Virus record (IMG/VR): IMGVR_UViG_3300024581_002488
Location: 3,064 to 67,063 of that record
Strand: one strand, 5' to 3'
Source: a virus
Length of the DNA stretch: 64,000 nt
Within the stretch, counting starts at the first letter, position 1. Every line of letters begins with the position of its first letter. This document shows, in pieces, positions 33,760 to 59,155 of this stretch. The position numbers and the translations under genes were made by a program. The notes beneath the pieces were generated by a model. The model had not been told where the DNA came from, did not search any database, and saw only the letters and a list, made by a program, of their open reading frames with translations.

Positions 33760-34242
33760 ATGATTTTTCCAGCATGGATACATGTAGCGGCTATCACAGC
33801 CGCTTTCATCACAATAGCGCAAGCTGAACCGCAAGAGTTCACAGCTGAAGACGAGCAGTGTATGATAGACAACATCTTTTATGAGGCCGTAAGTGAGCCT
33901 CTACTCGGCCAAATACTAGTGGCTGAGGTTGTCAAAAACCGCACCAATGACGAACGCTGGGGGGATACAATCTGTGAAACAATCTACCAACCAGAGCAAT
34001 TCTCCTGGACGCTCATCCCAGTGTACAAACTGTGGGCATTCAAGCAAGAAAACATTGAAGACTATACCGCTATTGCCACTGCTATGGCAAATAGTGATAT
34101 TTTTATGTCTGCTGATGCCCCGGCTGGCTTCGAAGGCGTTAATCATTATCTACGTTGTGACGCTAAAAGTCCAGAGCGCTGGGAAGACAAGATGGAGTTT
34201 CTTGGTCAAGTTGGTGCACACTGTTTCTATCGCGATAAATAA
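33760..34242 (+). CDS. endolysin, SleB / Hydrolase_2 family, with N-terminal signal sequence
   Basis: CMIDNIFYEAVSEP..GQILVAEVVKNR...YQPEQFSW...GAHCFY. Confidence 0.88.
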   Translation: MIFPAWIHVAAITAAFITIAQAEPQEFTAEDEQCMIDNIFYEAVSEPLLGQILVAEVVKNRTNDERWGDTICETIYQPEQFSWTLIPVYKLWAFKQENIEDYTAIATAMANSDIFMSADAPAGFEGVNHYLRCDAKSPERWEDKMEFLGQVGAHCFYRDK

Positions 34243-34301: not shown

Positions 34302-34547
34302 ATGGAAAACGAGCAAATAGAGACTAAACCGACGCCTAGGCTAGATACATGGCCTAGGCGTCGTCGTATGATGCACCAAGTTTTAGTGTTTTGTATGGCG
34401 GTAATCACTTTCTGTTTATGGCAGGAACCCGCACATGGTGATACAGCTATCGAGTATAGCTTCATAGTGATTGGCATTACAGTCCTGGGTTACGTATTCG
34501 GCGCGATATTGGATGATAATGCTGTAACCCTGTTTAAGAGGAAATAA
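34302..34547 (+). CDS. holin (2 TM)
   Basis: WPRRRRMM followed by two TM helices; between endolysin and spanins. Confidence 0.7.
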   Translation: MENEQIETKPTPRLDTWPRRRRMMHQVLVFCMAVITFCLWQEPAHGDTAIEYSFIVIGITVLGYVFGAILDDNAVTLFKRK

Positions 34548-34549
34548 TT

Positions 34550-34960
34550 ATGCCTTTCATGCAATATTTTAAGTGGGGAGCAATTGTACTTTTCGTCGTT
34601 TTGGCGCTAAGTGCTTATTCTCGTTACAATTCAGTAGTTTCCGAACGCGACTTATTAGTACAGAATAACGCTGTACTTGAAGACGCTTTTGAGAGGGAGC
34701 AAGAAGCGACAAAAAAGCTCCAAGCCTTGCTGGACAAGGCATACGAAAAGTTTGATGAGTTTGAAGCCACTTTAAAAGACTTTAACGATAATCAACAAAC
34801 CGCTCGTAAGGAATTGGAGGCGTTGAATGGTAAATTTAGGAAACATGACCTGGAAGCACTTGCCAAAAAGAAGCCTGGACTTATTGAAGATAGGCTTAAT
34901 AATGGCACTCGTGACACTTTCAGGATGCTCGAAGAATCTACTGAACCTAGAACCGACTGA
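34550..34960 (+). CDS. i-spanin (Rz-like)
   Basis: N-terminal TM, coiled coil, KKPGLIEDRLNNGT motif. Confidence 0.85.
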   Translation: MPFMQYFKWGAIVLFVVLALSAYSRYNSVVSERDLLVQNNAVLEDAFEREQEATKKLQALLDKAYEKFDEFEATLKDFNDNQQTARKELEALNGKFRKHDLEALAKKKPGLIEDRLNNGTRDTFRMLEESTEPRTD

Positions 34961-35246
34961 AGTAGTAGTGAATGAGCCGACGGTTGTAGTTTTACCAGAC
35001 CCCCATCCAGTAAAGCTATACAATATTAACTGGGAAGTGATTATAGTCAAAGACCCTGACGGGACAGAGAAGGTATATTTTGCTTTGTCTCCGGGTGACT
35101 ACGAAAACCTCTCACTCAATATGGCGGAGATTCTTCGTTGGATTAGTGAAGCTCAATGGCAGCTTCGTTACTATCAAAACGAGGTAAATAACAATGGCAA
35201 TGAACGAGGAAGAGACCAAGCGAATCGTGGAGATGACAGTTCGTGA
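34845..35246 (+). CDS. o-spanin lipoprotein (Rz1-like)
   Basis: Lipobox LSGC after a signal peptide; overlaps the i-spanin; YENLSLNMAEILRWI motif. Confidence 0.82.
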   Translation: MTWKHLPKRSLDLLKIGLIMALVTLSGCSKNLLNLEPTEVVVNEPTVVVLPDPHPVKLYNINWEVIIVKDPDGTEKVYFALSPGDYENLSLNMAEILRWISEAQWQLRYYQNEVNNNGNERGRDQANRGDDSS

Positions 35247-43457: not shown

Positions 43458-44064
43458 AGGCTTTCTCCATACCGTAACAGTTAACTTTAATCAGGCTTTC
43501 AAGGCGGTCAAGATACTTGACTCGATGGGCAGATTTGCCGATGCGTAAAACCTGAGTGCGAAGGTATTGATACTCAGTAATTCTACCTTGGTCATAGAAT
43601 TCCTCAAGCTTCATATAACAGATTCGGTGCACGTAGTTCGAAGAGAGCTCGAATTTCTCTGCAATCTCTGAACACGTCATGTCAGGGTCCATAAACAGTG
43701 CCATGATGAGGTCAATATCTTCATCAGGTAGCATGCAGTTACGTTCTGTCAACCCTAGGCGCTGAGCACGAGAATAGATGCTTACCTTAGTGCGATGAGG
43801 TAGGTGACGCTCTTGAATAGTCTCTGCGCCAATAAGCTTGAACCAGCGACGAAGGATTTGGTCCTCCTCAGGAGTATAGTCTTTGGTATACTCTTTAGTG
43901 GAGTCCTTCTTGATGTCTAGTTTATGCAGACGGGCTTTAATAGCGCCTAGGGTACGACCAGGTAGCTTATCGACCAGGAGTTTATTTGGAGTAGTGGCAC
44001 CGTGATTAAGAAGTATATTGTCTTCGAGAGCAGTCCACGCGTTCATGTTATTGGTTGCAGCCAT
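43450..44064 (-). CDS. Myb/SANT-like repeat HTH protein
   Basis: WTALEDNIL...LPGRTLGAIK; YTPEEDQIL...RTKVSIYSRA; SEIAEKFELS HTH. Confidence 0.78.
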   Translation of the reverse strand: MAATNNMNAWTALEDNILLNHGATTPNKLLVDKLPGRTLGAIKARLHKLDIKKDSTKEYTKDYTPEEDQILRRWFKLIGAETIQERHLPHRTKVSIYSRAQRLGLTERNCMLPDEDIDLIMALFMDPDMTCSEIAEKFELSSNYVHRICYMKLEEFYDQGRITEYQYLRTQVLRIGKSAHRVKYLDRLESLIKVNCYGMEKAYA

Positions 44065-44144
44065 ATTCAGGTCTCGTTGTTGTTTGAAGTTATTGTAATA
44101 ATAGACCGTATAGCTGCTGAAGTAATCAAACATTAAACCAATAA

Positions 44145-44180
44145 AAAAAGGCTCCCTTTTTCAAAGCATGGGAGCCTTTT
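44145..44180 (-). terminator. bidirectional rho-independent terminator
   Basis: AAAAGGCTCCC-loop-GGGAGCCTTTT with A/T tracts on both sides. Confidence 0.88.
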
Positions 44181-44455
44181 AATTACTTACACAATACGTA
44201 GAAACAATCATCGGTGGTTAATCGGATGGTTGTATGCTATTTACAGAGTTTGGGACTAGTATATAGCTGGTAGCCCTCTAGACTCTCGACTGGCGTAACT
44301 TCGGTCTCACGGTCGGTAAACGGTGATAGCAGTTACAATCTAGAGGGCTAGCAGCTATACACTCAGAGGAAAAATGCGGATAAAAACCCTAAGTGATAGC
44401 CGGAGAGTTAAGATTGGATGTGCGACCTACCAATCAACTAAACGTCTCTCGAACT
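44181..44455 (-). ncRNA. candidate structured RNA downstream of the holin-like gene
   Basis: 25-bp stem 44258-44282 / 44339-44363 (one mismatch, one GU on the - strand), nested GTAACT/AGTTAC, plus two further hairpins; no ORF. Confidence 0.6.
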
Positions 44456-44653
44456 CTAGCTCTTTTTATGGAGCTCAGGCTGAGACAGTAAACGGAACAC
44501 GATAAACACTAGACCCATAAGGCGGTAAACCCATTCCGATGCTGTTTGTGGAACTACATTATCAGCCATCCACCACTCAGCAATGGTGTAAATAAGAGCA
44601 ACCTGAACTGAGTGCATCTTAAGAGCTGATTTCCAGTTATCAATAAGTTTCAT
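44456..44653 (-). CDS. holin-like membrane protein
   Basis: MKLIDNWKSALKMHSVQ N-terminus and two hydrophobic helices ending RLLSQPEL, typical of a small phage holin family; AGGAG RBS. Confidence 0.75.
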   Translation of the reverse strand: MKLIDNWKSALKMHSVQVALIYTIAEWWMADNVVPQTASEWVYRLMGLVFIVFRLLSQPELHKKS

Positions 44654-44671
44654 AAACTTACTCCTGAAGGT

Positions 44672-44747
44672 TGGCGATGGATGCGGGACTCGAACCCGCG
44701 ACTCCTTGATTAACAGTCAAGCACTCTACCAACTGAGTTAATCCATC
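44672..44747 (-). tRNA. trnN: tRNA-Asn(GTT), CCA encoded
   Basis: 76 nt: GATGGAT/ATCCATC acceptor stem, CTTGA-CTGTTAA-TCAAG anticodon arm, GCGGG-TTCGAGT-CCCGC T arm, G73 then CCA. Confidence 0.97.
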
Positions 44748-44907
44748 AACTCGAAAGGCTCTCTGTCCGGAGATACTCCTAGACTTCTAATCTCTTACCC
44801 GTCAATATCGTGGCAGCGGGTAACTTCTCACATCCACGCTAGTTTTGATTAGAATTTGAAAACCTTTCGAGTTGCCCTCTGCAGGCTTAGGAGGTCAGAG
44901 GGCTACC
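44748..44907 (-). ncRNA. candidate structured RNA abutting the tRNA 5' end
   Basis: 11-bp closing stem 44748-44758 / 44863-44873, inner stems TTCTAATC/GATTAGAA, TTACCCG/CGGGTAA, GGAG/CTCC; upstream hairpin GCCCTCTG/CAGAGGGC. Confidence 0.6.
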
Positions 44908-44910
44908 CGG

Positions 44911-45309
44911 TTAAGCTGTAGGGTCTACATCTTTACCTTTACCACCTTTGTCTGCTTTAGCAGCTTTGGCTTTGTCCGCTTTTTCTTTTGCTTTAGCCGC
45001 TTTTTCAGCAGCTTTCTTTTCAGCATTGCGGGCTTTAGTGATGTCACGTGAAGTTTGCACCTTCGGATTTTCTTCACGGATTTTGTTACGGTACCAGTTG
45101 ATGGAAGCTTTCTTAGTCTTCGCATCAGGGAAGGCTTTAAGCACTTCAGCTAGCGCTTCATCGTTGTCTTTACCCGCTAGGATTGCTGCAGTAGCAACAC
45201 TTGCGATAGTAGGACCTTCAGAAGGCTGACGACCGCGTGGCTTTTTCACATCGTCTTTTGCTTTAGCAGCGTCTGCTTTACCTGCACCTTTACCTTTATT
45301 CTCAGCCAT
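44911..45309 (-). CDS. Lys/Ala-rich DNA-binding protein
   Basis: GAGGA RBS; KKPRGRQ; helical domain GKDNDEALAEVLKAFPDAKTKKASINWYRNKIR; histone-like KA tail. Confidence 0.8.
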   Translation of the reverse strand: MAENKGKGAGKADAAKAKDDVKKPRGRQPSEGPTIASVATAAILAGKDNDEALAEVLKAFPDAKTKKASINWYRNKIREENPKVQTSRDITKARNAEKKAAEKAAKAKEKADKAKAAKADKGGKGKDVDPTA

Positions 45310-45399
45310 AATCGAGTTCCTCTTGTTTGTTATCTGCATCATCGCTTAAGTTGAATTAAACTATAAACACTCTTAGTTGAGTTGTTAACCAGCAAATGA

Positions 45400-58919: not shown

Positions 58920-59155
58920 GTATTAGCCCTCTCGTACATAATACGATTGATTATGTCTTGTTATATGCGTCTTGCAATCTAATTTTTGTCTAGAGTTAAG
59001 GTTTTAGATATTACACACATATAAAGACGCGATAAACCACGTAGTGAATTCGGGTTTACCTGGATACTGCATATCGTTATTATTGCTTTATCGTTCAACC
59101 AACTGATGAACGGTCAAAGTCTATTTCGTGAACACTATAACTTCCTTTTCGTACA

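Follow-up and report, generated by a model that had tools for sequence, protein, structure and literature searches.

In Escherichia coli, the protein gene secG and the transfer RNA (tRNA) gene leuU lie on the same strand and are transcribed as one RNA, with no promoter or terminator between them. RNase P separates the messenger RNA (mRNA) from the tRNA, RNase E cuts 1 to 2 nucleotides (nt) past the CCA end, and the secG mRNA, released and unprotected, has a half-life of under 30 s (PMC2241853). Here we analyze a phage locus that, by analogy, may work as a mixed mRNA-tRNA operon of this kind. It lies on the minus strand of a 64,000-nt stretch of viral DNA, called the window here, which is bases 3064-67063 of the 75,257-bp IMG/VR virus record IMGVR_UViG_3300024581_002488 (CheckV completeness, 96%). 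In the locus, a gene for tRNA-Asn and a 65-amino-acid (aa) membrane protein gene of the DUF7940 family stand between two structured RNAs, RNA 1 and RNA 2. All coordinates are those of the window and refer to the minus strand unless stated otherwise.

Like secG-leuU, the locus has a protein gene and a tRNA on the same strand in what appears to be a single transcript, and processing is proposed to set the fate of the flanking mRNA. Differences are also clear: the phage has a large structured RNA exactly at the predicted RNase P site and a second open reading frame (ORF) after the tRNA, with its Shine-Dalgarno (SD) sequence in the tRNA trailer, whereas the secG mRNA has no protective 3′ structure. 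What is new here is the presence of two uncatalogued structured RNAs of narrow distribution within a known mRNA-tRNA arrangement.

Structured RNAs adjoining phage tRNA genes include the small stable RNAs of the T4 tRNA cluster and the GOLLD and ROOL RNAs. These, the theta ribozymes, and RNA 1 have in common that a conserved noncoding RNA (ncRNA) abuts a phage tRNA and is probably released by processing. The theta ribozymes, which are hepatitis delta virus (HDV)-like, were described as an alternative to enzymatic processing of tRNA 3′ ends (PMC10879173). They resemble our locus in location only; RNA 1 is on the 5′ side of the tRNA, has no Rfam or HDV-like model match, and has a pseudoknot whose helix order lacks the P3 or P4 hairpins that HDV-like folds require. 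RNA 1 was therefore rejected as a theta or other HDV-like ribozyme.

The first-pass annotation of the locus had instead looked to hok/sok, in which folding back of the 5′ end on the 3′ end controls a membrane toxin. There is a likeness, in that the phage also has an ORF for a small membrane protein and complementary sequences near its ends that compete with local folds. However, the end-to-end pairing is neither conserved nor covarying, and no predicted fold links its arms to the ribosome-binding site (RBS). The leader consists of an 18-nt tRNA trailer, without an overlapping upstream ORF like mok; there is no antisense RNA gene at the leader; and a tRNA is embedded in the transcript. Control of the hok/sok type thus finds no footing here. 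We favor an explanation in which the structured RNAs fold locally and independently and host RNase P and RNase E would process the transcript into separate RNAs with protective, folded 3′ ends. On this explanation, the locus forms the downstream half of a transcription unit conserved in the early region of a small clade of marine tailed phages. We put the probability of this explanation as a whole at about 0.6.

Anatomy of the transcription unit

Eleven loci with the same module were available for comparison (L005, L058, L059, L060, L061, L068, L081, L082, L083, L084, and L085), in addition to two duplicates of L061; all the relatives come from marine and aquatic metagenomes. The elements of which the first-pass annotation had spoken are all present on the minus strand, in the order it gave (H1 and RNA 1, tRNA-Asn, a "holin-like" ORF, RNA 2, and a terminator), and we verified their coordinates. 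The full unit reads promoter, gene for a 143-aa protein, hairpin H1, RNA 1, one to five tRNAs, DUF7940 ORF, RNA 2, and intrinsic terminator.

Both flanking RNAs proved to be structured, as had been claimed, since their local helices covary in the relatives. RNA 1 (44748..44874), defined by an alignment and a covariance model, R1, is a 127-nt three-way junction that ends at tRNA position -1. Its closing helix, P1, has 16 bp (44873-44858 / 44763-44748); the other elements are P2, with 8 bp (44854-44847 / 44792-44785), a hairpin, CGUGG/CCACG (44838-44834 / 44813-44809), P5 (44784-44765), and a helix, UUACCCG/CGGGUAA (44823-44817 / 44801-44795), that crosses the CGUGG/CCACG hairpin. In six distinct sequences, the proportion of paired cells is 99.6%, compared with 33 to 50% in slid controls, and three pairs have changed on both sides. 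Because one of these double changes falls in the crossing helix, RNA 1 is likely to contain an H-type pseudoknot. The model scored 137 to 156 bits on the transcript strand and 17 to 26 bits on the opposite strand, a difference that fits an RNA fold with G-U pairs and not a DNA fold.

In every relative, the end of RNA 1 lies 0 to 4 nt before position +1 of the tRNA, or of the first tRNA where there are several. Identity of RNA 1 among the relatives is about 84 to 100%, despite synonymous divergence in the DUF7940 ORF of about 0.9 to 1.4 per site against the distant relatives L058, L061, L059, and L068, which is near saturation. In L084 (L084:369-445), only the closing hairpin of RNA 1 is left (AACUCAAAAAG / CUUUUUGAGUU; loop, 17 nt). 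It carries a compensatory G-C to A-U change and, as elsewhere, adjoins the first tRNA. The pseudoknotted interior is, to judge from the sequence, dispensable in L084.

Hairpin H1 (44868..44909; 14-bp stem, 44909-44896 / 44881-44868) follows the stop codon of the 143-aa gene directly and has no U tract. The lowest 6 nt of H1 overlap the 5′ strand of RNA 1 helix P1. An alignment of eight sequences (A6) has 94.6% of H1 cells paired, against 35 to 49% in slid controls, with two pairs doubly changed (C-G to U-A and G-C to U-A).

RNA 2 (44258..44455) is the folded part of the 3′ untranslated region, as judged by covariation in the relatives; the structured 3′ region as far as the terminator spans 44455-44181, about 275 nt. 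Its first helix, P1 (GAGAG/CUCUC; 44450-44446 / 44407-44403), has a compensatory pair, G-C to A-U, and P2 is a variable hairpin (44395-44389 / 44366-44360) whose pairing, read by eye, is kept in all relatives. The long hairpin P3 (44358-44339 / 44282-44263) extends to 44363/44258 in the window only, where it reaches 25 bp. Pairing in the outer P3 stem stands at 97.9% (slid controls, 27 to 48%), and three pairs have changed on both sides, one of them a U-A to A-U flip that accommodates a change in the 3′ arm of the end-to-end pairing; by eye, CUAGA/UCUAG has become CUGAG/CUCAG in L059, L060, and L084, a replacement that adds three further double changes. P3 encloses a 37-nt core (44321-44285) that is unchanged in every relative except for a 1- to 3-nt spacer (44307-44305) and one A-to-C change (L084/L085). 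Two ideas about RNA 2 were tried and given up. A hammerhead fold of the core is missing stem II, and its candidate core bases vary in L059; pairing of the CUCUCC segment with the SD sequence is too weak, at 4 + 4 bp with a bulge.

A cmscan of positions 43800-45300 against Rfam 15, at E values up to 10, found no family for RNA 1 or RNA 2, returning only the tRNA and weak matches at or overlapping the terminator or the tRNA. Neither motif was found outside the clade in pattern searches of IMG/VR, metagenome_contigs, and genome_contigs or with model R1. The core patterns, whether exact or degenerate, led to one sister contig only in IMG/VR, with zero matches in metagenome_contigs and genome_contigs, and a helicase-anchored search of IMG/VR returned the same sister contig alone. 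A 16-mer from RNA 1 did match 12 other IMG/VR contigs; these are chance matches according to model R1. The RNA 2 core and the pseudoknotted interior of RNA 1 are candidates for new RNA motifs with a narrow known distribution.

The probable start of the unit, as judged from sequence, is a sigma-70-like promoter (TTAACA-17-TATAGT; 45360..45388) that matches the consensus at 10 of 12 positions and lies between the helicase and 143-aa genes; its -10 element, TATAGT, and an upstream block, GGTTA(A/G)CAACTC, are invariant in five relatives (alignment A7). The first gene (44911..45342, with its stop at 44911) encodes a Lys/Ala-rich protein of 143 aa (phrog_17205, unknown function) and is syntenic in all relatives, downstream of an SNF2 helicase gene. 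Between this gene (44911) and the start of the DUF7940 ORF (44653), a consensus scan found no promoter- or terminator-like site. The sole other promoter-like match on the minus strand is weak (9/12) and lies within the ORF (44643-44616), and the sole one on the plus strand (44827-44855, 9/12) lies within RNA 1 and away from the ORF leader.

The tRNA-Asn (GTT) gene (44672..44747) was called by ARAGORN and by Rfam RF00005 (72.8 bits; cutoff, 29), and its CCA is encoded. The DUF7940 ORF (44456..44653) begins with an ATG at 44653, 18 nt past this CCA, and its SD sequence, AGGAG (44665-44661), does lie in the tRNA 3′ trailer, as first reported; the trailer, with its SD, is 18 to 27 nt long in all relatives. 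The ORF would be expressible only from a transcript running through the tRNA. The 3′ tail of RNA 2 and the intrinsic terminator occupy 44140..44257, with an 11-bp terminator stem (44180-44170 / 44156-44146) followed by U7. The consensus scan missed this terminator because its loop is 13 nt. In relatives, the stem sequence differs yet pairs, with a T run after each, so that the structure is kept.

Processing and other roles for the structured RNAs

We imagine a single transcript that would begin at the promoter (about 45360) and end at the terminator (about 44140), with H1, RNA 1, and RNA 2 each folding locally and on their own. Host RNase P would cut at tRNA position +1, and exonucleolytic trimming or a cut of the RNase E type would act just past the CCA. 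Three products are predicted: an upstream mRNA whose new 3′ end, formed by the 16-bp closing helix of RNA 1 together with H1, would be a barrier to exonucleases; the mature tRNA; and a DUF7940 mRNA with a short leader that would retain the SD sequence and end in RNA 2 and the terminator. RNA 1 itself might persist as a stable small RNA. A role for the RNA 1 helix as the 3′ barrier after the RNase P cut would account for its constant abutment to the tRNA and for the minimal hairpin of L084.

Several points weigh against this explanation. A search for sequencing runs with the locus sequence found no RNA-seq (RNA sequencing) run, and co-transcription, the cleavage sites, and RNA stability are what we infer; the covariation comes from only 5 to 8 distinct sequences. 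In the window itself, the long-range fold is predicted to hold 5% of the ensemble, only 0.7 kcal/mol off the optimum. Moreover, the elaborate conserved interior of RNA 1 and the invariant RNA 2 core exceed what a simple exonuclease barrier needs, and both RNAs probably have some function beyond that of a barrier. Finally, H1 and P3 have nearly the same 7-nt core across a clade in which synonymous sites are saturated, which the processing model does not explain. The unexplained interior, core, and shared 7 nt keep two other explanations alive.

The first of these is that RNA 1 and RNA 2 are free-standing functional ncRNAs (RNAs that bind proteins or act as decoys, a new ribozyme, or a sensor of a ligand) that are released from the tRNA precursor, in the manner of the small stable RNAs of T4, and have a role unrelated to expression of the neighboring ORF. 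Their primary sequence is conserved beyond what pairing needs, as seen in the 37-nt core and in the identity of RNA 1 where synonymous sites are saturated, and the pseudoknot helix has its compensatory change. RNase P would free RNA 1 with paired ends, and phage tRNA regions are known to host ribozymes and large ncRNAs, such as the theta ribozymes (PMC10879173). However, no Rfam family matched, L084 does without the RNA 1 interior, and the motifs are confined to the clade in our searches. We regard this explanation as possible but unlikely. In a bolder form, RNA 1 and RNA 2 would be two new functional classes of phage RNA, with a core or pseudoknot that is catalytic or binds a ligand or protein, and strand exchange between H1 and P3 would perhaps have been co-opted in the window's lineage as a bistable element linking tRNA processing to membrane-protein output. 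This seems to us decidedly doubtful.

In the second explanation, a single sequence-specific factor recognizes both H1 and P3. It could be an RNA-binding protein of the phage or a nuclease specific for double strands, would bind or cut at the two helices, and would bracket the tRNA-ORF segment and coordinate its processing or stabilization. The nearly identical GCCCUCU/AGAGGGC core is found in both helices throughout the clade, even though the stems are free to covary. P3, with about 20 bp, one mismatch, and an internal loop, also has the general shape of phage RNase III sites, as in the processing of T7 early RNA. On the other hand, the core drifts independently in the two hairpins (CUC/GAG in H1 of L059 and GCCUUCU in P3 of L058), and no candidate protein was found. 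The window contains four exact copies of TAGCCCTCT, three of them at the locus; the only other one (58924-58932) sits within the RBS of another gene. A common factor for the two hairpins is quite improbable.

The 11-nt pairing between the two ends

The first-pass annotation proposed that pairing of the two ends would lock the transcript until tRNA processing removed the 5′ arm, freeing a holin or toxin mRNA and so tying lysis or superinfection control to tRNA maturation. The sequence features on which it built are real. The 5′ arm, GGTAGCCCTCT (44907-44897), is perfectly complementary over 11 nt to the 3′ arm, AGAGGGCTACC (44279-44269). The first arm sits in H1 and the second in the 3′ strand of P3, two local hairpins with a common GCCCUCU/AGAGGGC core, and the local and long-range folds exclude each other; in the window, they are nearly isoenergetic (free-energy difference, 0.7 kcal/mol). 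RNAduplex, applied to the whole 5′ and 3′ segments, gave only uninformative whole-length duplexes. A perfect long-range complement of 11 nt arose in 40 of 2,000 dinucleotide shuffles of the 773-nt transcript (2%), which is unusual but not extreme.

The complementarity does not hold up in relatives. Although L005, L081, and L083 have the same two arms as the window, pairing at 11 of 11 positions, the four variant groups fall to 8 to 10 of 11. In L082, the 5′ arm is GGCTGCCCTCT and the 3′ arm is unchanged (two mismatches); in L058 and L061, the 5′ arm is GGTTGCCCTCT, again with the 3′ arm unchanged (one mismatch); in L059, the arms are GGTTGCTCTCT and AGAGGGCTTCC (two mismatches and a wobble); and in L084, they are GGTTGCCCTCT and AGAGGGCTTCC (two mismatches). 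At no position is there compensation between the arms. Such a lack of conservation is an outcome that the first-pass annotation had itself named as refuting its switch. Instead, the altered positions covary with their local partners in H1 and P3.

Folding energies give the same picture. The energetic cost of imposing the long-range duplex is 0.7 kcal/mol in the window, 4.5 in L005 (a near-twin of the window), 9.5 in L058, 11.4 in L061, and 20.1 in L059. The window's own near-degeneracy arises because the exchange is between strands of two hairpins of the same stem. The A at 44904 is probably derived; it makes an A-A mismatch in H1, where all more distant relatives have a U-A pair, and so both weakens H1 and completes the long-range duplex. 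The near-degenerate folds are a lineage-specific state.

The predicted structure around the SD sequence and the AUG is identical in the optimal and forced folds, leaving no visible path from the duplex to control of translation, and distances of more than 230 nt and more than 175 nt separate the arms from the ORF. Cotranscriptional folding would favor the local hairpins, and the genes corresponding to mok and sok are missing. A switch linking lysis to tRNA maturation is therefore unsupported, and we consider it very improbable, whether as a mechanism of the whole clade or as one that evolved in the window's lineage only. H1 and P3 share a 7-nt core, and a few flanking bases match by chance in the window's lineage, which explains the perfect complementarity; the 11-nt pairing is most likely a by-product of two hairpins with a short common core and not a conserved switch. 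The proposal should not be carried forward in its switch form.

A last idea, that the repeats act as DNA (the ends of a mobile tRNA-ORF cassette, a replication origin, or an operator), is hardly credible: 11-nt inverted repeats do bracket a 639-bp unit, and the cassette is missing from a distant high-GC relative, but there are many G-U pairs, the R1 scores favor one strand, the repeats are imperfect in relatives, conserved structured sequence continues beyond them, and transposase and target duplication are both missing.

The membrane protein and the phage clade

The "holin-like" label given to the 65-aa ORF is borne out by sequence comparison, with matches to PF25612 (DUF7940; 31.2 bits, cutoff 27) and to phrog_1356, annotated "holin" (E value, 3e-11). 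Against six relatives, dN/dS (the ratio of nonsynonymous to synonymous substitution rates) is about 0.1 to 0.2, indicating purifying selection. As the first-pass annotation also said, the phage has its own lysis cassette about 10 kb away on the plus strand, with an endolysin (33760-34242) and two spanins (34550-35246). Between the endolysin and the spanins lies an ORF of 81 aa (34302-34547, plus strand; phrog_14936, unknown function), which is a likelier true holin for this phage than the DUF7940 ORF.

The family is found in other contexts. Both a homologue of 55% identity and 49 other DUF7940 loci have no tRNA nearby, so that linkage to a tRNA (0/49) is not a general DUF7940 trait. In three prophage-like loci (L017:3001-3792, L020:3001-3771, and L037:3001-3777), DUF7940 forms the N terminus of a CHAP or Amidase_3 endolysin of about 260 aa, and in L017 a gene for an S-like holin is immediately upstream of the DUF7940-endolysin gene. 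The 65-aa protein is like these prophage DUF7940/phrog_1356 proteins in exceeding the Pfam cutoff and in having two hydrophobic segments. The settings differ, however; the prophage genes are fused to endolysins or stand beside S-like holins or lysozymes, with no tRNA nearby, whereas the phage gene is isolated in the early region, with the lysis cassette 10 kb away. The family is thus lysis associated, its holin role being putative, and it may serve as a membrane anchor for endolysins instead of as a holin.

The start of the DUF7940 ORF can itself fold. A 9-bp hairpin at 44642-44662 places the AUG in a 3-nt loop of the minimum free energy fold; it forms in those relatives of the tRNA-Asn type that were checked and is impossible in L059 or L084, and we made no use of it.

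The replication genes of the phage are similar to PaMx28/Xp12-type siphovirus genes, with an identity of only about 40%, and in blastn and megablast searches of the phage reference collection, the tRNA alone matched, with no close relative found. When the 65-aa ORF served as a protein query, six related clusters (55 to 83% identity) and four close variants (90% or more) were found, and contigs of four DNA sequencing runs confirm relatives at about 90% identity. Common to all 11 loci is the order DNA polymerase, RNase H, SNF2 helicase, small Lys/Ala-rich protein, module, and Myb-like regulators. In the distant high-GC relative, L002, which lacks the cassette, the helicase and small-protein genes directly precede regulator-like genes.

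Between the flanking RNAs, which are retained, tRNA content differs within the clade: some members have Asn alone, L059 has Gly-Met-Gln-Trp, and L084 has Gly-Met-Asn-Gln-Trp. At L059:2251-2573, L084:445-844, and L085:80-398, the single tRNA-Asn has given way to an array of four or five tRNAs (Gly, Met, Asn, Gln, and Trp). The slot between RNA 1 and the DUF7940 ORF thus behaves as a site for tRNA cassettes. Four relatives have an extra ORF of 58 to 63 aa between the DUF7940 gene and RNA 2 (L059:2814-2990, L060:471-647, L068:475-666, and L084:1085-1261); the window is without it. Relatives also conserve a block beyond the terminator, at 44064-44140 (TTTGATTAC ... CTATTAT). The ATG at 44064, and not 44133, is the probable start of the next gene, and the block may serve the Myb-like regulator genes as their promoter, although its counted spacing, about 20 nt, is long for sigma-70.

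The locus is best described as a clade-specific case of a phage transcript in which one protein gene precedes the tRNAs and another follows them, together with structured RNAs under strong sequence constraint. If the processing model is true, these phages would use a folded RNA at the tRNA boundary to spare the upstream mRNA the rapid decay seen with secG-leuU.

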